This document shows positions 39,164 through 52,232 of a DNA stretch of 64,000 nt, in pieces (the first letter of the stretch is position 1; the number at the start of each line of letters is the position of its first letter). The notes below the pieces were generated by a model. It had not been told where the DNA came from and did no database searches. It saw nothing but the letters and a program-made list of their open reading frames with translations. Location of the stretch: NCBI GenBank assembly GCA_000004985.1, contig GG738876.1. The stretch is one strand, 5' to 3'. Source of the stretch: Naegleria gruberi (lineage: Eukaryota). The position numbers and the translations under genes are program-made.

Positions 39164-41076
39164 TTACCATCCGTAAAGTCCCTTACCAACACGAACCTTT
39201 TCTAAATAATCTTCAAAATCCTTCTTCAAATAAATAGGCATAACACCACGCATAGCAGCATCTCTATCAACAGATCTAAGTTGATCAACACACTTGAAGA
39301 AAGCAGGAATGACGTTCAAAATATTTCTACTACCATAGAGTCTGACAGAACAGTATTTAAGACCCAAATAAGCACACAACTTTCTTAAAATTGGATTGGC
39401 AGTTGGTTGTTCCTTAGTACTAGGGTGAATTCTGACTTTACAAGCACCAAACTTGGCTTCGAGCATATGAGAACGTGGAATGCAAGCAGAAGGATCAATA
39501 CTTCTAATATTCTTATAAGCAGCCTTTCTTGCCTTTGATTGAGCAACTGCTGGACTGGCAGCTGTACCAAAACCAACACCACACAATCCACTGTAACTTC
39601 CTACCAAGTACAAACAATTGTATGATTCAACTCTACCACCAGTGGTCATTTTACAATTTCTTGAAAGCTTGAGAACCTTTTCTTCGAATGAAACATCTGT
39701 AATAGCATCCTTTTGACCGTGATAAATTTCTGGATCTTCAACATCATCAGCAAGTGGGTGAGTAATTGCTGGTTCACCTTCATATTCATAAAGTGATTCA
39801 TCCCAATCAGCATCAAGATCAACATCTCCAAAGTAACCCTTTTCAACACCAACACTAGCATTATAAATTGGATTAACACTAACATTAGTCTTGGATGACT
39901 TTCCCTCTATGATTGATTCTAAATTTTGGATTTGTTGTCCAAGTTGTGTTTCATCAAATTGATATAAATAGAAAGGAGCTGATGTTTCATCTCTTTCTTG
40001 TCTTAACAGCTTAGTGTTCAATGATTTAATCATATCGGATTGATCAACCTTTGAAACTTTGAATCTCTTTCCTTGCAATTTACCTAAATTTTCAACATCT
40101 TGAGAAACACGTTCAAATGACTTTGGAACTTGAATTCTTTCAGGATCAGCTTCATTCTTTTCTTCAATTAATTCATGGAATCTAGAGTAATCTTTTCTAA
40201 CTCTTAAAGCTTCTTGTAATTCATTAATTGGTATGTTTTCATCGACATCCTCAATATCTATAGTATCAATTTCATTTGACCCAACTTCTTCTTCATCTTC
40301 AATTTCTTCCATTTGTTCATTTTCATTATCCTCGTCTTGATCTCTTCTTGAGATGTTATCTTCATCAACCATTTCATCTAAGTCATCCAAATCGGCTTGA
40401 GTCTTTAATTTACTCAAATCATATAAACTTTTAACTTTGAATCTGTTATATTCAGTTTCGGCAGGTTGAGAAAAAGTACCAGGGAACATTCCAAAGTTAG
40501 TATATTTAGCCCAAATTCTTTCCTTTTGTACAGCTCTTGGTAATTGAAGGTTAACGTTGGCTTGTAAGAGACTCAAACTAATAAAGGCTTCCTTGATTTT
40601 TCTTACAAGTTTTGTTTCCTTCTTTTCGGTAGCGAGCCAATAAACAACTTTATGTCTCTTTTCCTTACGCAAATTCTTGAGGTAGAAGACAAGAGTTTCA
40701 AACATTTCTTCAGTGAATTTAGTACCTTGTTGTTTTGCTTCTATAATATTGATAAACTAGTTATAAAATTATTATTGTTGTTGTTTAACATTATTTTGAG
40801 AGCGATAATATTACATACGTCTTTATCATTATCTGTTGTTGGGAAATTTAATTCTTCGGCAGGAATTTCTCTATTTCTTTCTTTTTCTTCCATTTGTTTA
40901 AGTTCGCTATCACTAATTCTTTCAAAAGAATTTTTAATGATTTTACTTGATGAAAAGCATCGGCTTTGAATATATGAAGGAGAGTTGTGAATTGAAGAAA
41001 AACAAAGAGGTGATTGCTTGGTGGCCAACTTCTTAGTTGAAGAAGGGAGCTGGCGCAAAAGTTTAATGTTTCTCAT
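39164..41076 (-). CDS. MRPS5: Mitochondrial ribosomal protein S5 (uS5m) with a long acidic N-terminal extension. Exons 41076-40819 and 40756-39164, with a 62-nt intron
   Basis: C-terminal uS5 signature: GGRVESYNCLYLVGSYSGLCGVGFGTAASPAVAQSKARKAAYKN..GACKVRIHPS..LGLKYCSVRLYGSRNILNVIPAFFKCVDQL. Exon 1 looks like a mitochondrial presequence (MRNIKLLRQLPSSTKKLATKQSP..). Donor GAC|GTATGT and acceptor AACTAG|TTT. Confidence 0.75.
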
Positions 41077-41199
41077 TTTTTAGGGCAGTCAAAAAATTTA
41101 CAACAATAAAAAAACATCCTATTCAATTTAAAATAAAATTTAATTTTAAATTAAAAAATACAAACAACAATAACACAATTTTAAAGATTGGTAACCGAA

Positions 41200-41796
41200 A
41201 TGTATAACGGAATTGGTTTAACAACACCTCGTGGAAGTGGTACTAATGGATATGTTCAAACAAATTATAGTTCTGTCAAAAATAAGAAACCAAATAATAA
41301 TTATCAACAAAAGGAAAGGAAAGATTTATTAAAAATTAAATCTCCAAATGTTGATCTTTTAATTCATGAGGAAAAGAAGAAGGTTGAAATTGAATTGTAT
41401 AAATTAAAATCTGAGTTGACAAAACAAGGTAAATTAACTCCAGAAGAAATTGATCAACAAATTTCTGATAAAAGAAAGGAAAGAATGAAACTTATTGAAA
41501 ACAAATACAATAACATTAACAACAAGGGAGATTCAAAAACAGAGGAAAACAATGAAAGAAATGAAAAGTTCAAAAAAGCTCTTTCATTAGATAAAGAATT
41601 TGAAAAGAAGGGAATTAAATCAAATGAAGACGCAGAACTTGTAGCATTTGATTCCAAGTTAAATGAAATGCTAAAAAGAAAGGAAAAACCAGCATCTCTC
41701 GAAAAGAAACAAAGAAAAAAGAAGAGGAGACATGATCGTAATTCCTCATCAGATTCATCTTCAGAAAGTGCATCTTCATCAGATAGTGATGAGTAA
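41200..41796 (+). CDS. CWC21: CWC21/SRRM2-type splicing factor (cwf21 domain)
   Basis: N-terminus MYNGIGLTTPRGSGTNGYVQ is the cwf21 signature. True ATG at 41200 (the track start at 41188 is a TTG). K/E/R/S-rich tail. Confidence 0.75.
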   Translation: MYNGIGLTTPRGSGTNGYVQTNYSSVKNKKPNNNYQQKERKDLLKIKSPNVDLLIHEEKKKVEIELYKLKSELTKQGKLTPEEIDQQISDKRKERMKLIENKYNNINNKGDSKTEENNERNEKFKKALSLDKEFEKKGIKSNEDAELVAFDSKLNEMLKRKEKPASLEKKQRKKKRRHDRNSSSDSSSESASSSDSDE

Positions 41797-42034
41797 TAAG
41801 CTCATTTTTTTATTGTCTCTACTAATATCTGAAGTGTCGAGATTTGTATCCCCGCACTTTGCTTGGATGAAAAAAGATCCTCTCTCTTCTCAGCCAAACA
41901 CTGACAATTTGAAGTAAAAATCAGGTACCTTTTCAGAAACTTGAAAAGCAGTTTGAATAAAAATAAAGAGAAAAGGAGACGCAACCTTTGTGTTTTACTA
42001 GTTCGCTTTTTGCTCTACTTCACAACAATCAAAC

Positions 42035-44218
42035 ATGGAACAACGACAAGACTACGTTGCCGAAGAACAAGAAGAGGACATGTTTTTCAATGCTGGAAGA
42101 GTTGCCAACTATGCTGAACAATATGCACCTTCCCAAAGATTGAAAGATAATCTTCTTGGAAAGTCTTCCTCCAATAATCAGGACGATATTAATCTTCAAA
42201 AGCAATTGAATAAGCAACAACAACAACAACAACAACCAATACAGCAACCAATACAACAGCAACAACAACAACAATATCAACAACCACCAATTGCTGCCAT
42301 CACTACTCCAATAAGAACCATGAATAATAGCAATAATACAAATATTGTTAGTAATAATAGTAATACCGTACCAACCCCTTTGATGATGAGCAGCAATAGT
42401 AATTCAACCACTAGAAATGTACCATTATCAACACCAATGAATAGTTATAATAATAATAATAGCAGCATTCCTTCAACAGAATCTAGATTGCCTACACTTC
42501 CATCAATTCCTTCAACAATTTTAAATAGCTCATCTACTCTAAGTAATAGTGCCACATCTTCCTCCATAGAAAAAACTCTTCCAATCCTTTCTAGTCCTGG
42601 TGTAGTAGGTGTAGTGAGTTCAGATCAGAAAAGAAAGATTTCATTGCAGTATTTGGCAGAAATATCCAACTTTTCAAGAAAAGACGTTCAAGGTTTGTTA
42701 TTCTATACTTGAATTTATGATTGATTTACTTTTATAGATGCTATGGTCAGTAAGATTGATAGTGAGTCAGGAGAAATCTATGGTAACATACCAGAGATTA
42801 TTGTTGGTATGAAATACTCATCCAGAATGGACTTGTTGGATGCAAAGATTCACACAGACCTCCAGTCAGATATTTGTACAAATGGGAATTATATCAAACC
42901 AGTCCCTGCTCTCATAATTTATGATACACAAGAGAGACATGAGGATAGAGGAACTGTTGTACTTTACTCTATTCCATTCAATGGTGTTCACTCAGACCTT
43001 TATACAGCTCCATCTATTAAGGGTACACCTTGTGAGGCTCTCGCTCAAAATTCTATCTACAAGATTCCTGTTAGAGTTATTAGAGGTAGTTATGAATCAT
43101 CGGTTGATGATGGAAAGAAGTTTAGAAATGGACATTGTCCAACACAAGGATACAGATATGATGGTATTTACTTTGTTGGCGAATACTTTTATGAACCAGG
43201 TGCAACCTCCTTTGTATTCAAGTTGATCAGAATATATGGGCAACCTGAATTACCACATGCTCCCAACTTGGCTGAACCTCCTGTTAGAAACAATTCCTCT
43301 AATAACCAAATACCTCCTTCATTCTCAAATCCGCAACAACAAGGACCACCATCTAATATGCCAAACATGCCAAACGATAGAAAGATATTTGGAATACCTT
43401 CTTTCGTTACACAAAGAATACTATCAGGAAGTAACCAAGACTACCTAGCTCAGAGTACAAGAAACTCACACAACATGCCATTCATACCATCCCTTCCTCA
43501 AAACTACTCACATTCCAATAATTATAATAGCCAAGCAAATAATCCTCAAAACCCTCATTCACTTCCAGCCATGCCTTCAATGCCAAACATGAACTATAAT
43601 AGAAATAACTTCCCAAATAACAATAACATGAATAATAATAACTACAACGAACCACCTCCTCAAAACAATAGACCTATTATGAGAAATACTGGTCAGTCAA
43701 GCTCACAATCATTTGGTTCTCCATCATTCCCTAATAATGGTAATAATAACAATAGCAGTAGCAATAATAATAATGATGGACTTAATCTGACTCATACCTC
43801 TGTAAGACAAATGATTAATAACCTCAAATTCCAAAACAGTAACTTTGGTGGCCGTATTCAGTCATATTCGTATAATATTTCAGAGTTAGCTTCTAAGGTA
43901 GAAGATGTACAAAAATCAATGCCAGCCCTTGGTAGACAATTAACTTCGAGAAATAAGACTTTCACATGGAAGTTGGGACAAGAGAAAGAACAGGAAGAAT
44001 ATGACAGAACTAAATACTTTGTCTATGACGATGATGAGGATGTAAGTGAAGAGGAAGAATTAGAAATTGAAAGACCTTCAAGATCTAAAAAGAAAAAGAC
44101 ACATCATACAAGCAGTGGCAGTAGTGGTACAATGAGTAGTAGTGGGAATAATAGTGTGAGAACAACCCCCAATGATTCGAATTCGACAAACTCAAACAAT
44201 AAACAACAGCAACACTAA
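42035..44218 (+). CDS. SRA-YDG domain protein. Exons 42035-42692 and 42738-44218, with a 45-nt intron
   Basis: GNIPEIIVGMKYSSRMDLLDAKIH...VRVIRGSYES...GYRYDGIYFVGEYFYEPGATSFVFKLIR is the SRA (SET- and RING-associated) YDG fold. Poly-Q/N flanks. Donor CAA G|GTTTGT and acceptor TTTATAG|. Confidence 0.8.
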
Positions 44219-44241
44219 TTATTGTTGATATTAAAAGAAAA

Positions 44242-45917
44242 ATGCAAAACAATAAGAAGGAACAATCAGCCGAAAACTCTGACGATTTTCAACTCGTTTC
44301 CAAGAAAAAGACAAGTGGAAGACCACATAAAACCAATAAGAGATTAACAAACAACAAACACCATCACGATGTTAAACATCAAAAGAGTGAAAAATCATCA
44401 TCAGCAGCAACAATTGGAAAACAATCAATTACTTCCACTACCACTCCCACTGCACAACAACATTCGGAATCATCAACATTACCTGTTATTATTAAACAAA
44501 ATCAAGTATCATCCACTCCTGCTGCCACTCCAACAAATGTAGTTTCCTCCTATTCAGCAGCAGTAATTTTGAATAAGAACACAACAATTACACCATCTTC
44601 AAACTTTTATTCCATTCCTCATGATCATGACAATAATTTGAGAAATAATCATCAATCAAAGAATAAGAAGGATTCCACTTCTCTTAAAAACAAACCCAAT
44701 GAAAAGAGTAATAGAAAACAACAATCAAATAAGAAAATTGAAAAGAAACAACCCCAAATGGTTGTTCGTAAAGTTAAACCAATTCCTCAATTCTTTATTA
44801 TTAGAAAACCAATGAATCAAGGAGAATTTCACTATGAAAATTCATCTTTAAAACCAATAATTCCAAAGGAACCTCAAGATGAAATGGGAAGATCATTCTA
44901 TAATTCATTAAAGAGTTTTATTGAAGATAGGAATGCCCATGTTTATGACTTTCCAAATACTTTAAATTTAAATCAAAGAAAGAAAGTTCATAATTTAGCA
45001 GAGGAATTTAAATTGGATCACTTTTCAAGAGGATCAAATCCTTTCCGTTATATTTGTGTTTCTAAACGTGATATGAAAATTAAAGATGAATTCCAGGTAT
45101 GTTTTAAATAGGTTAAATAGATAGATGAAGGAATTTATTGCAGTATTTTGGATATATTGGATTGTTTGGACACTCAATTGATGAATTTGTTAGAAAATTC
45201 ACACTTAATCCTGAATTATCATCCAATCAACCACTTTTACAAAAGAGAATTAAACGTGATGGACCAATTCATCATATTACCATAATGACACGTCCAGAAA
45301 TTAATACAGCTATCAAAAATATGGATGCTAAGGAATTGGATCACTTATTTACCAATGATCAAAAGCAAAAGATGAAAAATGGAACAGAAGAGGAAAAAAT
45401 TGAAATTTTAATGAATATCATTTCAAGAGTTGTTGTAAATGACTATCAAACATTAGGATTGGGTAAAATTACTGAAAAATTATCTCATTTTGAAGGAAAG
45501 AAGACAGATGATGTGAACGAAGCTTACTTTGTAATTGTTGATTGGCCTAGTGCACAGAAATTGAGAGGAGTTTTGGGATTGGAACCTTATAGTTTCCACA
45601 TTACTGTTGCTTATAAATACGGAGATATTCATGGAGTGACTAAAGATATGTCAACTCAAATTTCATCACAATCATTTGAGATTACCAACGAATTTTTACA
45701 AAAGAAGGAAAATGATATGGAAAATCTCTTAAGGTTTATTGGAGTTGATACTAGATATGCTCGTTCACTGATAAATCTTGGTTGGTTCAATACTGAATCA
45801 ATTGCAAATATTGAAAAGATGGATTTGAGTGATGTTGGAATGACAGAAGAGGATCAAAATAAGATTTTATCATTTGTTCAAGATTTTGCAAATAATTACA
45901 AAAATTATAAAAAGTAA
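44242..45917 (+). CDS. R3H domain plus 2H-phosphoesterase fusion protein. Exons 44242-45096 and 45144-45917, with a 47-nt intron
   Basis: Exon 1 ends with an R3H-like segment (NQRKKVHNLAEEFKLDHFSRGSNPFRYICVSKRD). Exon 2 carries two H-x-T-x motifs (IHHITIMT and FHITVAYKYG), diagnostic of the 2H/LigT-like phosphoesterase fold. Donor CAG|GTATGT and acceptor TTGCAG|. Confidence 0.7.
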
Positions 45918-46007
45918 TCAAGATCATGATTAAGATTTCAAAAGTATTTATTGAACCAACACCAAGTTAAATAATAAATTATTTTAATGTTTTAAATTTT
46001 AAAAAAA

Positions 46008-46397
46008 ATGGACAAATACTTGAACAGTAAGTAGAAAAAGGTGTGATTGTTTTTTAAATTCCTACCACTATAATCATCGGATCTTTAAAGATACTGTTGC
46101 TGTTGTAACTTGTGATGGTAGATATATTATGGGAGTATTGGAAGGATATGATCAACATACAAATTTGATTATAAAAGATTGCACAGAAAATAAGTATGAT
46201 CCTGAACAAGGAGTTATTCAAGAAAGTTTAGGACTTCAAATTCTAAGAGGAAATAACATGTATGTAAAATAATTATTGAATTTACAATGTTAATATTTAA
46301 TAATAGTGTTTTTATTTCCGAAATTGATGACAAATTATTCGAGAATATGAAAATTAATAGGAAATTGGCAGTTCCACTCAAGAAATGTTCAAAATAA
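46008..46397 (+). CDS. LSM8: LSm8 (U6 snRNA-associated Sm-like). Exons 46008-46026, 46091-46259 and 46307-46397
   Basis: Spliced product MDKYLNNTVAVVTCDGRYIMGVLEGYDQHTNLIIKDCTENKYDPEQGVIQESLGLQILRGNNIVFISEIDDKLF aligns to LSm8. Introns are 64 and 47 nt. The 19-nt first exon ends at GTAAGT. Confidence 0.75.
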
Positions 46398-46519
46398 TTA
46401 CTTAATTGAAAATAGGACATATGATGACAACTAGAACAACAAACTCTTTTTCAATTGGTTTTGATGTATTTGGTGAAGAACTTAGAACAGAAAGAAGAAA
46501 GTTAATTTTCGTTTATGAT

Positions 46520-48465
46520 TTATAAATTTTGAATCCAATCTTTATTACTAGTATCAAACGAAACTATATTCTTCTTAAATGAAGTGGGTGATGATGATTT
46601 AGGTTTGTTGGTTGTTGGAGAAATATTTCCACCGAGTGAAAATGTGAAATTTGTTGATTTTTCTGGTGTTGATACAGATTCTGTGCTTGCACTCTCCCTA
46701 GATGATTTGTAATAATTGGTAAAGCTATCTAATTTTGATGCTTGTTCTGGTTGTACAGATAACGTTCTATCACTTGAGGAATAATCTGTATTATAAGTAC
46801 CAGAGCTAATGTTTAGCCCTGAGCTTAAACCACTATATCCTAGACTTTCAGTGTATCCTTGAGTTATAGATCTACTTTGCTTTGACATTAGAGTATCAAT
46901 CGTAAATTGGTTTTGCTCTATCTTTTTGTGGGCCTCTTTCAAATCAGTATCTTTTTCTTCAAGTTTTTTCTGGATTGATCGCAAATTGGCTTCATATTCT
47001 TGAAGTGCTAAATTTCTCTTTTCTACAGTTTTGGCTAATTGTTGTTTTTCCATTTCCTTCTTCTTGAGTGCGTGTTGGAAACTTTGCATTTTAAGCTTTC
47101 TTTCTTGTTCTTTTTCTTGGTTGTGACTTTCTCTTTGGGCATACTTTTTGATGATGGCATGACACTTCTCAACATCATCTGATTTCTCTTTAACTTCTCT
47201 TTCCAAGTATTCCAATTTTGATTTAAGCTCTGCAATTATTTCTGACTTTGAGAGCTCTTGCTGTTCTTTCTCTTTCAAGTGATCTCCAAGTGTTTTGAGA
47301 GACATTCCTTTTTCTTTCATTAATTCTTCATTTAGTGTGACCCTTGTCTCCAATTCTCTAATCTTCTTTTCATTTTCAAATCGAAGTGAATCCAACTCTC
47401 TATTTTGATCTCTGAGTTTGGTAATTTCATCAAGGTAAGATTTTTTCTCATTTTCAAGCTGAGAGGATCGGCTAGTTATTTGCCTTAAATCATTCTCAAG
47501 TCTGAATTTTTGAGAAATTAATTCATTGTTCTGTGTTCGGTATTCTTCTAATTTTTGGCTTAGTGTTTTGGTTTCAATATCTTTTCTTTCTTCTGTCTCC
47601 TTTTTCTCTGTTTCGAGCTTCGTTTGAAATGAACGAATTTCTTCCATGTGCTTTTCTTTCATTCTTGTAATTTCTTCTTTTAATTTATAGGTGGATGTTG
47701 TTATCTCCTTCTCTTTACTCATTAATAAAGCATTTCTTTCTTCCTTTAGCTCATCCACAACATTTTCCAATTGTTCGATTTTGTGTCTGTAATCCGAATC
47801 AGAATTCTCGAATTTTTGTGTGCTCTCCAATGCTATTTGCTTCCAATATTTAAGTTGATTGGCAAGGTATTCTTTTTTTTGTTCATTAGAGCCTTCAACT
47901 AATTCCAAATGGAATTTCGAGCTTTCACTGAAGGGATCAGAATTAATTATTTCCAAGACCGCTTTTCCTTTTCCTTGATGAATACTTAATTTAATAAACC
48001 AACTATGAAAGCATTAGGAAATTATATTTTGTAGTATACATACTCTTGATTATTGTCAGAATGAGATCCACGACACATTTCAAACATATTTTCGAGGTGA
48101 CTTGTAAATTGGGAAAAGTCTGTCTTAATTCTTTGTGAGGTTTTCATATTTCTATACGCACTCTCATCTATTTGAGCTGTAAAAAGGAAGTAAAGATCGG
48201 AATCATCGGTTAATGTAAATATAAGACTAGAATAATTTGCTGGTTGTTGTTTTTTCATTGATGAAAGGGTTGAAGAAGAGGCTGGAAGGACTGTTGTTGG
48301 AAGGCAAGACGAGTTGCAAGAGATTGTTATTTTAATTGTAAATAACTTTCCCTCGTTGTATGTTTCACCGATCTGGTTACTGTTGCTGCATACTGAAGGG
48401 TCCTTGAATACATAGACAGGAAGGACAGACTCATAGAGAGGTCTAACTTCTGTTGGTTTTTGCAT
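46520..48465 (-). CDS. SAS6: SAS-6 centriolar cartwheel protein. Exons 48465-48044 and 48002-46520, with a 41-nt intron
   Basis: N-terminal PISA-type motif (SLIFTLTDDSDLYFLFTAQIDESAYRNMKTSQRIKTDFSQFTSHLENMFEMC) and a linker (AVLEIINSDPFSESSKFHLEL) match SAS-6, followed by about 400 aa of coiled coil. True ATG at 48463-48465 (the track start is a GTG). Donor GA|GTATGT and acceptor TCATAG|. Confidence 0.85.
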
Positions 48466-48537
48466 TTTTTTTTGCGTTAATTTTGTAGTCCTTCCCGCCA
48501 CCAGATGTTTTGTACAAAGTTTTGGAGGGAAATTTAT

Positions 48538-51500
48538 TTACATGATATCATCGTCCGACAATTCCAAAAGTTTCGATATTTCATCTTTCAAATCTTTAAC
48601 AGAGGATTTTCTTTGGGGAACCTTTGATGTAGTTGTGGTTGACTTCTTAGGTGAAGATTCTGGTGAGGCAAATGAAATCTTCTTCTTTGGCTTTTCCTTG
48701 ACTAGTGGCTTTTCTGATTCTTCATCATCAGAGCTTGACAGCAATCCAAGTTCTTCATCATCTGTACCCTCACTTTCGTATTGGTGGGCTGAAGAAGATC
48801 CAGAAACTGACTTTTTCTTAGCATTTGATTTTCTAACATCTACTTCATCAATGTCAGGAATAAGTGGACTTAATGGTGTTGGTGGATCTTGCATTGTTGG
48901 AATTGGAGATGCGTCAATCATCATGGATGAGCTAGGATCAATATTACTTGTGTTGCTTTTCTTTTTTGGTGTTGAAAATAGAGATTTCTCTTCTCCAATT
49001 TCGATCAAATTTACCTTGAGCTCTGAAGGGTTAGTATTTTTGGTTCTTTCAAACCTCTTAGTACCTTCTGGTGTTGTTGATTCTTGAATTTCTTTTTCAT
49101 CCAATTCATCTAAGAAGAGTTCTAAATCAACTTCCTTCTCAGCAAGTTGATTATTGATTTCCTCCTCTATTGCCTCATCATCAATTACTTCTGGATTTTC
49201 ATCATTCTTTTCTGTTTGTTCTATAATTGCAAGGAATTTCTCTAAATTCTTGATGGATGGTTTGTGGTCGATCTTTTTGATTGCTTTCTCAAGAAGGAGT
49301 TTAATCTTTCTTAAATGTCTCTTGTTAGAGTCAAAGATTTTGAGCGAAGAAAGTTGTTTACAATAGTATTCGCTCTCCTTTGCTTGTGGATTGATAAGAA
49401 TTTCAAAAAGTATGTTAAGTGCTAAATTTTCATGTAAAAGTAGTGTGTCTGGTTTGGTGATTAATTGCTGACTTTCTATCAACTTGTCTGGGTTAGTGAG
49501 TTCAGCAAGATAAGATAACAGCTGGGCAACATTAACCTGGCTTAGATATGAATTCTTCTTAGAGTGAACAACTCTTCTCAAGGAATCCATAACTATTGAT
49601 CCGACCAATTTCATATTCTTGGCAAGGCTATAGGAATAGGCAGGGAGGAAAACAGTAAGACATTGTCTTAATCTATTATCTTTTGATGTTACATTACTGA
49701 ATAGGAGGAGAATCATATCAGATAGAACTTCCTTTGAGTACTCTTCGTCTAACTTACTAGAAAGAAGAAGTTTGGCAAAGCCTTCCACAGTAGTAGCTCT
49801 AATTTGTCTTTCGACATTCGAGAAAATATTCTTTACCTTATCCATCTTTCCTTTCATCTCTGTTTTGCTGAAAATTTTTGGTGCTGAGTGAATGAGAAGT
49901 ATATCAAAAATGGCCTCTAAAATAGCATTGATGCATGAGGTATCAGTTTCAACTGAAAGCATGTTAAATAATTTGTCTATATGTTCTTTTGCAATATCAA
50001 TTCCTAATGCACAGAATTGTCCCAATACTGTTATGGACATCATTCGTAGATATGGATATGTATGAGAAAGGGTTTGTAACACAAGATCGTCAAGCAAATA
50101 AATAAATTGGGATATATCAATTGGATAGTCAGATTGCAGTATGAACTGAGAGGTTATATGAAGAGCTCTAAGCCACATACATATCTCTTCAATATCATTA
50201 GGAAGGTCTTCTTCTTTTAGAATACATAATTCATCTTGTAATTTTTCTTGTTCAGATTTAAGTTCTTGTATTTCATCTCTTTTCTTTTTTGCCTCCAAGT
50301 ATTCCTCTTTTTTAGCAAGTTGATCCTTTTCTTTAGTCAATATTGTTATTTTTGAGAAAATTTCTTGTTTTCTTTCCTCTAGGGATCGAATTTTTTCCTT
50401 CTTTTCAATTTCTCTTCTTTGCCTCTCCTCTCTGCTTTGTTCAGACGAAATACCAGAAGCAACAGTTCTAACCAAGTCAATCTTTGTAAGTACAGTTGTT
50501 TGGAAATCTTCTTGATTAGGGAGAATACTCTTGAGTGCTTCAATGATTTCCTTTACATGAGTCTCAGGTGCTTGGAATACAGATAAAAGCTCGCTCAAAA
50601 GTGAATGAATGTTGGTTCGTCCAACCTCATCACTATAATCTAGATATTTAGAAAGCATTAACAATTGTTTCACAATGAAATCCTCACTACTCTTAATATA
50701 ATTAATAATCAGATGCACAAAATCAGTTATTGAGCTTGGTAAGATCTCTTCAATGGATTGTTTTTGATTAATTAAATATTCACATTTACATCTCCAAAAT
50801 AAAGCCATCTCAGGTGTTAACTTTGTACTGTCTACATGGTCTCCATTTAAAACCAATTTGTCTGATTTGTCTTTTTTTGTTAATATAAGTTTGATTATCT
50901 TTTCACAAGTCTCCTCATATTCCGTAACATCGAGTAAATTTAAAAACTTTTCAATATTGTTGTCATTTTCTTGAAACCATTTCTCAATTAAAAACTTTTC
51001 AACTTGTTCTCTTACAGAAGTATTTCTTTCCTTCAAACCAAAAGAAATAATACTTTCTCTTTGTTGAATACTAAAGTTCTTAATCTTGACTGCAGAGAAA
51101 ATCTTCTCATACGCAGCAGCTCTAACATCCTCTTTTACATCCTTAATTTTTTCTAAAACTGAAGAAAGAGTTTGTTTCAAAAGATAGATTCTTTTTACAG
51201 CCTCCTTTCTTACATCTTTGTTAGTGTCTGTTTTCATCAATCTGATAAACTCATTTGTTATTTCAGGCTCCGTAATTGGTTCTTGAAACTTGTATAATAC
51301 AAGTATTGCCAAAAGTCTAATGCCAGGAACCTTATCACGTAATCTACCCACATATTTTTCCTTGAGTTCATTAATAAAGTCAACATCAACATCATCCTCT
51401 GGTGTGATCTTGTCCATAATTTCGGCAATTATTTGGGCAGTTCTCATTCTAATAGTTTTATCTGTTGCATTGGCGTAACCCAATAAACTGTACATGAGAT

Positions 51501-51882
51501 CAACATCAAAATTTTCTGTTGAATCACGAAGTTTCTTGTTAGTATATTCACAAAACTTTCCGATAAATTTAATTATCAGTTCAACAGGCTTCTCGTTTTT
51601 AGAAACTAATAATACAGGATGTAATACTTCAAAAAACTTTTGGAGAAATGCCGAATAGTTTTCTTCATGTAATTTCGCCAGAACTTCTATACATTTATCA
51701 TGTGAAGCATGTGATTTTTGAGCCTTGTTGAATTGTTTTGCGATCGCCACAAAAGTTGGATCTTTATCTGTTGTCTTTTTCTTCTTTTTTGCTGGCTCGG
51801 AAGAAGACGATGTTGACTTCTTTTTAACAGTCGAAGAAGATGAAGTTTCTTTCTTCTTTTCCTTCTTGTCTTTAGCAGGCAT
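48538..51882 (-). CDS. NCAPG: Condensin complex subunit 3 (CAP-G/NCAPG-like) HEAT-repeat protein, single exon
   Basis: SVREQVEKFLIEKWFQENDNNIEKFLNLLDV and TPEMALFWRCKCEYLINQKQSIEEILPSS align to conserved CAP-G blocks. HEAT-like repeats with DVRKEAVKRI. True ATG at 51882 (the track start is a TTG). K-rich N-terminus and acidic C-terminus. Confidence 0.75.
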   Translation of the reverse strand: MPAKDKKEKKKETSSSSTVKKKSTSSSSEPAKKKKKTTDKDPTFVAIAKQFNKAQKSHASHDKCIEVLAKLHEENYSAFLQKFFEVLHPVLLVSKNEKPVELIIKFIGKFCEYTNKKLRDSTENFDVDLMYSLLGYANATDKTIRMRTAQIIAEIMDKITPEDDVDVDFINELKEKYVGRLRDKVPGIRLLAILVLYKFQEPITEPEITNEFIRLMKTDTNKDVRKEAVKRIYLLKQTLSSVLEKIKDVKEDVRAAAYEKIFSAVKIKNFSIQQRESIISFGLKERNTSVREQVEKFLIEKWFQENDNNIEKFLNLLDVTEYEETCEKIIKLILTKKDKSDKLVLNGDHVDSTKLTPEMALFWRCKCEYLINQKQSIEEILPSSITDFVHLIINYIKSSEDFIVKQLLMLSKYLDYSDEVGRTNIHSLLSELLSVFQAPETHVKEIIEALKSILPNQEDFQTTVLTKIDLVRTVASGISSEQSREERQRREIEKKEKIRSLEERKQEIFSKITILTKEKDQLAKKEEYLEAKKKRDEIQELKSEQEKLQDELCILKEEDLPNDIEEICMWLRALHITSQFILQSDYPIDISQFIYLLDDLVLQTLSHTYPYLRMMSITVLGQFCALGIDIAKEHIDKLFNMLSVETDTSCINAILEAIFDILLIHSAPKIFSKTEMKGKMDKVKNIFSNVERQIRATTVEGFAKLLLSSKLDEEYSKEVLSDMILLLFSNVTSKDNRLRQCLTVFLPAYSYSLAKNMKLVGSIVMDSLRRVVHSKKNSYLSQVNVAQLLSYLAELTNPDKLIESQQLITKPDTLLLHENLALNILFEILINPQAKESEYYCKQLSSLKIFDSNKRHLRKIKLLLEKAIKKIDHKPSIKNLEKFLAIIEQTEKNDENPEVIDDEAIEEEINNQLAEKEVDLELFLDELDEKEIQESTTPEGTKRFERTKNTNPSELKVNLIEIGEEKSLFSTPKKKSNTSNIDPSSSMMIDASPIPTMQDPPTPLSPLIPDIDEVDVRKSNAKKKSVSGSSSAHQYESEGTDDEELGLLSSSDDEESEKPLVKEKPKKKISFASPESSPKKSTTTTSKVPQRKSSVKDLKDEISKLLELSDDDIM

Positions 51883-52232
51883 TTTTTCTTTAATTAACAA
51901 ACATAAATTTATGATTTTCTGGCGGCATTTTTGCTTGATGCAAAAGGCGGGAAAGACCTCTCTTCAATCCCTCCTTTTTACAACTACTATTTTGTGTTTT
52001 AGGCAAAAAAACTACAACTACATTGATCTGCTCTGCTGGTTGTTATTGAAGGTTCTCATAAATCGTATCGTATGAATCAATAGCCTTTTGGGCTCCTAAT
52101 AGATTGCTGCAGAATTTTCTAAGTGATCATACAAACCTAAGGAACCTCTAATTCCAACTTAACCTTATTTATTATTTGTACAAATCTTGTTGTTGTATTA
52201 TATCTTCCCTTTTAATTTATAACTTAGTAATT

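Follow-up and report, generated by a model that had tools for sequence, protein, structure and literature searches.

Opening of RNA 2',3'-cyclic phosphate ends to 2'-phosphates by 2H phosphoesterases is among the most widespread clean-up steps of RNA repair (PMC9503650, from the group that named the 'Swiss Army Knife' (SAK) proteins). The SAK name is traced by later papers (PMC7824862) to Burroughs & Aravind (NAR 2016), and the curated SAK RNA-repair proteins constitute the Pfam family PF22547 (2H-SAK; full name 'Swiss Army Knife, 2H phosphoesterase domain'). The nuclear gene described here occupies positions 44242-45917 (plus strand) of a 64,000-nucleotide stretch of Naegleria gruberi contig GG738876.1 (assembly GCA_000004985.1), the whole of which is referred to as the window. 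Its product combines an R3H domain, a 2H-SAK domain, and a sterile alpha motif (SAM) fold domain, and, judged by sequence, is a further member of a known, biochemically uncharacterised 2H-SAK/R3H kind. Its gene structure, three domains, catalytic-motif conservation, recurrent domain fusion, and the fusion partners of the family come directly from the analysis. On balance, its probable function is that of an RNA 2',3'-cyclic phosphodiesterase (end healing), tethered to RNA by the R3H domain and a basic tail.

The protein agrees with the 2H-SAK family in its full-length match to PF22547, in its motifs, and in its fold, which is that of phage and giant-virus SAK proteins. Unlike the multi-enzyme SAK proteins, which contain RNA ligase, PTP-SAK phosphatase, and kinase domains, it carries only R3H, SAM, and the basic tail; with nothing but binding and interaction modules beside 2H-SAK, it could heal RNA ends, not seal them. 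Other protist proteins with R3H and 2H-SAK share its domain order (e.g., N. lovaniensis C9374_007379, Acrasis kona AKO1_008010, Acanthamoeba castellanii XP_004341160, and Balamuthia KAL6056177) and are labelled just 'R3H domain-containing protein' or 'hypothetical protein'; red-algal relatives have a Methyltransf_32 domain at the N-terminus in addition. Two His-x-Thr (HxT) motifs are likewise present in E. coli ThpR/LigT and the cyclic phosphodiesterase domains of tRNA ligases, each starting a β-strand after a β-α unit, an arrangement predicted for the window protein too, and the chemistry is presumed to be the same. Unlike ThpR/LigT, the N. gruberi domain contains a helical insert of ~50 residues and extra invariant residues (RDG, GLG, W419, D446-x-H448, and K452), and it lacks a significant profile or Foldseek match to these enzymes.

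A comparable logic is found in ASCC1 (KH + 2H), where a single-stranded-nucleic-acid-binding domain precedes the 2H domain; unlike ASCC1, the N. gruberi protein has R3H instead of KH and falls into another 2H clade (2H-SAK in Pfam). Ighmbp2/Smubp-2 and PARN are also enzymes with an accessory R3H domain, and the R3H domain of the window protein is closest to that of Smubp-2, but these enzymes pair it with a helicase or a DEDD nuclease in place of a 2H phosphoesterase. R3H domains bind single-stranded nucleic acids, and that of Ighmbp2 raises RNA affinity ~10-fold and stimulates the catalytic domain (PMC3505976).

Gene structure and domain content

As read from the sequence and its open reading frames (ORFs), the gene starts with an ATG at 44242, stops with a TAA at 45915-45917, and encodes a spliced product of 542 amino acid residues (aa). 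These boundaries and the two-exon structure match exactly those given in an earlier note on this DNA, made from the letters alone. The features are as follows:

44242..45096, plus strand: exon 1 (aa 1-285), from the ORF and a splice donor in the sequence; basic low-complexity N-terminal region and R3H domain
44242..44811, plus strand: N-terminal ~190 aa, K/S/N/T/Q-rich, isoelectric point (pI) 10.4, probably disordered, from composition
44902..45066, plus strand: R3H domain (aa 221-275) with R246-x3-H250, from Pfam PF01424
45097..45143, plus strand: intron of 47 nt, GTATGT...TTGCAG, phase 0, located precisely between the R3H and 2H-SAK domains
45144..45917, plus strand: exon 2 (aa 286-542 and stop), from the ORF; 2H-SAK and SAM domains
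45150..45632, plus strand: 2H-SAK phosphoesterase domain (aa 288-448), full-length match to Pfam PF22547
45273..45281, plus strand: first H-x-T motif, H329-I-T331 in HHITIM (HHITIM at 45270-45287; HHIT is aa 328-331), from alignment
45597..45605, plus strand: second H-x-T motif, H437-I-T439 in FHITVAY (FHITVAY at 45594-45614; FHIT is aa 436-439), from alignment
45624..45644, plus strand: conserved, family-specific D446-x-H448...K452 segment (DIHGVTK), from alignment
45711..45893, plus strand: SAM fold domain (aa ~475-535), acidic, pI ~5, from its five-helix SAM fold

The ORF of exon 1 reaches ...GAATTCCAG (...DEFQ) at 45096. The junction DEFQYFGYIGLFG is uninterrupted in orthologs from four genera, and DEFQ is followed directly by YFGYIGLFG in those of N. 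lovaniensis, N. fowleri, Willaertia magna, and Acrasis kona. The sole intron of the gene recurs at the same codon boundary in the N. lovaniensis annotation, where it is 64 nt long with GT..AG ends. Exon 2 has no ATG of its own upstream, and its ORF opens only with a TTG at 45138, within the intron. It is extremely improbable that an adjacent R3H gene and a 2H gene were joined here in error, even though the intron sits precisely at the domain border and a database protein (P0007) stops three residues past the same junction. P0007 originates from a 2.8-kb metagenome contig and appears to be a gene-caller read-through into the intron; moreover, the phase 0 frame is kept with GT..AG ends, the orthologs are contiguous over the junction, N. 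lovaniensis is spliced at the same point with synteny kept, and exon 2 lacks an upstream ATG. On these grounds a pair of separate genes was rejected as an explanation, and the fusion of R3H and 2H within one gene, as the earlier note had it, is borne out by the contiguous orthologs and by the conserved intron position and synteny. The gene structure and domain content described here are regarded as nearly certain.

The R3H domain proposed at the end of exon 1 scores well above its Pfam cutoff when the 542-aa spliced product is scanned (hmmscan, E 4e-9, 36.8 bits versus 26.8). Eight orthologs show no change at R246 or H250, and the nearest R3H structure found by phmmer is that of Smubp-2 (PDB ID: 1msz/2lrr, E 8.8e-5). 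At the position of the N-terminal tail, the Willaertia and Acrasis orthologs align with RG/RGG repeats (RGRGRG stretches), and an N-terminal MQ..F.LV..KK..GR pattern is conserved among the Naegleria orthologs.

A third module, the C-terminal SAM fold domain, was overlooked by the earlier note. Its acidic character makes it less likely to be an RNA-binding SAM of the Smaug/Vts1 type. With a hidden Markov model built from this segment, the SAM addition was detected in 14 of 159 proteins, namely the Heterolobosea set and a few metagenome proteins, and in no scanned protein from a named amoebozoan or red alga. A six-frame scan of the whole window revealed no further copy of R3H, 2H, or SAM.

The 2H-SAK domain and its relation to classical 2H enzymes

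The two H-x-T motifs pointed out in exon 2 by the earlier note belong to a complete 2H-SAK domain, which matches PF22547 over model positions 1-124 of 124 (E 2.4e-27, 96.1 bits versus a cutoff of 27; Pfam hmmscan) and reaches 102.2 bits when the domain is compared by itself. Residue conservation was derived from 93 aligned domains, i.e., 92 from the nearest relatives and that of the window protein. The catalytic positions are retained in nearly all of them (H329, H437, and T439 in 92 of 93, T331 in 91). Beyond these, R323-D324-G325 upstream of the first HxT motif, G390 and G392 (GLG), W419, D446, H448, and K452 are conserved at 88-100%; D446 and K452 occur in all 93 domains and H448 in 92. The window protein agrees with every column conserved at 88% or more (R323, D324, G325, H329, T331, G390, G392, W419, H437, T439, D446, H448, and K452). 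The profile scores and the motif conservation lie far beyond chance.

The same conservation bears on a non-catalytic alternative, in which the 2H fold would act as a ligand module and the SAM domain would oligomerise an RNA- or nucleotide-binding adaptor or scaffold. The 2H fold of AKAP7/AKAP18 has been reported to bind 5'-AMP, three of the four modules of the protein are binding or interaction modules, and no member of the family has a demonstrated activity. However, both histidines, both threonines, and the polar D446, H448, and K452 are near-invariant over 93 divergent domains, as expected of a working active site, and such a scaffold is very unlikely.

The D446-x-H448...K452 segment is not known to be a feature of classical 2H enzymes. 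Together with W419 and the GLG loop it could extend the active site and enable the eukaryotic R3H-2H-SAK proteins to perform a different or additional RNA-end reaction, such as complete terminal phosphate removal or end-specific trimming, although this is distinctly improbable. If true, free-living amoebae and red algae would possess an RNA-end surveillance factor that stands alone and works independently of a ligase, and the coupling to a methyltransferase in red algae might serve end protection.

An AlphaFold2 model was computed from exon 2 alone, with a mean predicted local distance difference test score (pLDDT) of 91.8 and a predicted template modelling score of 0.85. In the model, each half of the 2H-SAK domain adopts a β-α-...-β(HxT) arrangement, and a helical insert of ~50 residues separates the two halves. 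Both catalytic histidines begin predicted β-strands (exon-2 residues 44-49 and 152-157), with a β-α unit before each strand. In LigT, the catalytic residues start β2 and β6 and form a pseudo-twofold active site (PMC5283653). A second AlphaFold model, of the Willaertia core with R3H (six sequences), reached a pLDDT of 53, too low for reading interdomain contacts.

Among predicted viral structures, the top fold match is a phage protein annotated as 'Swiss Army Knife 2H phosphoesterase domain-containing protein' (E 1.1e-7, template modelling (TM) score 0.66 on the target), and multidomain proteins from Bodo saltans virus and Terrestrivirus are also among the best matches. The match to a phage protein bearing the name anti-CBASS Acb1 was weak and not significant (E 0.36). 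A tblastn search of phage genomes with the 2H domain gave no match.

The links to solved 2H enzymes are far weaker. A Foldseek comparison with E. coli LigT (PDB ID: 5ldi) gave an E value of 1.7 and TM scores of 0.26-0.28. The family profile, built from homolog cores, produced only chance-level matches to PDB sequences, and no solved structure of the family turned up among them. Comparisons with E. coli ThpR by hhalign, using the single sequence or a 109-sequence alignment low in diversity (Enterobacteriaceae-level relatives only, effective number of sequences 1.8), and the whole domain or its halves, yielded probabilities of at most 25%; the alignments were always anchored on the helix and the HxT motif. 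Apart from 2H-SAK, the Pfam families matched by more than one of 24 family members were LigT_PEase (3/24, best E 0.025) and 2_5_RNA_ligase2 (2/24), with E values of 0.03-0.05. Since 2H enzymes may share just ~10% identity (PMC5283653), these weak links are read as consistent with a divergent 2H clade as curated by Pfam, while homology to the superfamily is not independently proven.

Relatives, fusion partners, and proposed function

Orthologs combining R3H and 2H-SAK in one protein are encoded by N. lovaniensis, N. fowleri, Willaertia magna, and Acrasis kona, with precomputed annotations publicly available. Core identity amounts to ~65% with N. lovaniensis and N. fowleri and 64% with Willaertia, and spans 40-65% over the Heterolobosea orthologs and two metagenome relatives. 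A search of 1.84 billion cluster representatives with the core profile retrieved 969 clusters at E <= 1e-3 and 236 at E <= 1e-10.

The Pfam content was surveyed in the 150 nearest cluster representatives, six of which are the orthologs used for the profile; as the query contained R3H, the ranking favours R3H-bearing proteins. Within this set, 2H-SAK was found in 146 proteins, R3H in 75, Methyltransf_32 in 17, RNA_ligase in three, HMG box in three, and PTP-SAK in one. The following architectures occur:

R3H + 2H-SAK, with or without SAM
Methyltransf_32 + R3H + 2H-SAK, ~600 aa
2H-SAK + RNA_ligase
2H-SAK + RNA_ligase + PTP-SAK + P-loop kinase (P0140, 1390 aa)

Named sources of R3H + 2H-SAK proteins include Heterolobosea, Amoebozoa (Protostelium, Cavostelium, Balamuthia, Acanthamoeba castellanii XP_004341160, and Stenamoeba), and red algae (Hildenbrandia and Timspurckia). 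The arrangement, which the earlier note did not recognise from the characterised 2H families, is therefore recurrent rather than peculiar to the window: its 2H part belongs to a curated family, R3H accompanies it in half of the nearest representatives, and the orthologs had already been annotated automatically in public databases. The profile search proposed at that time was significant for both domains, and a match of the AKAP7_NLS type was absent.

The N-terminal Methyltransf_32 domain precedes R3H and 2H-SAK in P0050, P0052, P0065, P0069, P0088, P0091, and P0122, and a source is named for two of these, which come from the red algae Hildenbrandia and Timspurckia. This combination brings to mind bacterial Pnkp-Hen1 with its 'heal and protect' logic. 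The HMG boxes occur in three further relatives.

RNA-repair fusions of 2H-SAK are exemplified by P0077 and P0140. A ligase together with a phosphatase and a polynucleotide kinase makes up a full heal-and-seal kit, like Trl1 or T4 Pnkp plus Rnl. Because relatives fuse 2H-SAK to RNA ligase, phosphatase, and kinase domains, a role in RNA-end processing or repair is favoured. This role, raised as a possibility in the earlier note, has become the best-supported function.

From these data we infer the substrate, the product, and the roles of the accessory domains. The two His-x-Thr motifs of 2H-SAK would form a metal-independent active site that opens RNA 2',3'-cyclic phosphate ends, such as those left by metal-independent RNases (e.g., tRNA-splicing and stress endonucleases or ribotoxins). 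Ring opening would constitute the 'healing' step, after which the phosphate is removed or the RNA is ligated or degraded. Single-stranded RNA might be kept near the catalytic domain by R3H and the lysine-rich tail, and the acidic SAM domain may be responsible for self-association (oligomerisation) or partner recruitment, not for RNA binding. A point against such an end-healing enzyme is that the links to solved 2H enzymes, by profile and by fold, fall short of significance. Neither the window protein nor its neighbour genes carry a ligase, kinase, or phosphatase domain; this association is seen in other members only, and the lack of such linkage in a eukaryotic gene is weak evidence.

The RNA-binding domain and the basic, possibly nuclear, tail would also suit the processing of a defined RNA. 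The protein might accordingly be a 3'-to-5' exoribonuclease that trims a specific small RNA selected by R3H and leaves a cyclic or 3'-phosphate end, similarly to USB1, an exoribonuclease of the 2H superfamily (PMC10493513). The conserved, single-copy locus of housekeeping type in Naegleria agrees with this. However, fusion to ligase, kinase, and phosphatase domains follows the logic of repair, not of trimming, and the window protein matched no other 2H Pfam family at E <= 10 (the family of USB1 was not checked by name); a trimming enzyme is therefore considered unlikely.

Small nucleotides could be hydrolysed instead of RNA ends (e.g., 2'-5' oligoadenylates, cyclic oligonucleotides, 2',3'-cyclic nucleoside monophosphates, or ADP-ribose 1'',2''-cyclic phosphate). 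Some 2H enzymes hydrolyse ADP-ribose cyclic phosphate or cyclic nucleotides (PMC5283653), PMC9503650 refers to viral 2',5'-phosphodiesterases, and the fold match to anti-CBASS Acb1 points in the same direction, although it is not significant. Polynucleotide substrates are indicated by the linkage to R3H (75/150 relatives), the RGG-type tails, and the RNA ligase fusions, and a phosphodiesterase for small nucleotides thus seems improbable.

If the end-healing function is right, the protein would be a compact, RNA-tethered enzyme for 2',3'-cyclic phosphate ends arising from stress, splicing, or toxin RNases; the pathogen Naegleria fowleri is part of the same lineage. The activity of this small soluble protein could annotate several hundred database clusters. 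As the arrangement is already catalogued, it opens no long-standing question, and the main value lies in correct annotation. Full-text literature searches on SAK RNA repair, 2H-SAK, PF22547, and R3H with cyclic phosphodiesterase returned nothing relevant, and no experimental study of any member was found, the founding computational SAK description being outside the reach of these searches.

Surroundings of the gene

The gene order and strands of window positions 39164-51900 are kept in N. lovaniensis (PYSW02000029.1:133287-145066). The shared order comprises mitochondrial ribosomal S5 (minus strand), a small gene, a SAD/SRA gene, the R3H-2H-SAK gene, LSM, a SAS-6-like coiled-coil gene (minus strand), and condensin Cnd3 (minus strand). 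By this synteny, too, the window belongs to the Naegleria lineage of the Heterolobosea. These neighbours are unrelated housekeeping genes, as expected in a eukaryote, and give no pathway information.

The stop codon of the SAD/SRA gene at 44218 and the ATG of the R3H-2H-SAK gene at 44242, on the same strand, leave 23 nt between the coding regions; the gap at the same place in N. lovaniensis measures 30 nt. As 23 nt offer scant room for separate untranslated regions and a promoter, the transcripts may overlap or be co-transcribed. The ORFs at 42035-42712 and 42743-44218 (plus strand) probably represent a pair of exons from the same SAD/SRA-domain gene; in N. lovaniensis, the counterpart is one product of 711 aa. 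A long N/Q/S/P-rich low-complexity region makes up the C-terminal half.

The ORF at 39164-40705 (minus strand) contains the N- and C-terminal Ribosomal_S5 domains; a weak match of its N-terminal 230 residues to PLA2_B (lysophospholipase; E 6e-5, under the cutoff) may reflect chance or a merged ORF. A 478-aa coiled-coil ORF without a Pfam match lies at 46520-47956 (minus strand), where N. lovaniensis has a 653-aa SAS-6_N protein; the SAS-6 head is probably located on a separate upstream exon, tentatively at 48022-48501. The window is AT-rich (~30% GC) with short introns, and its positions 1-2000 have a GC content of 15.9%, versus ~30% for the remainder.
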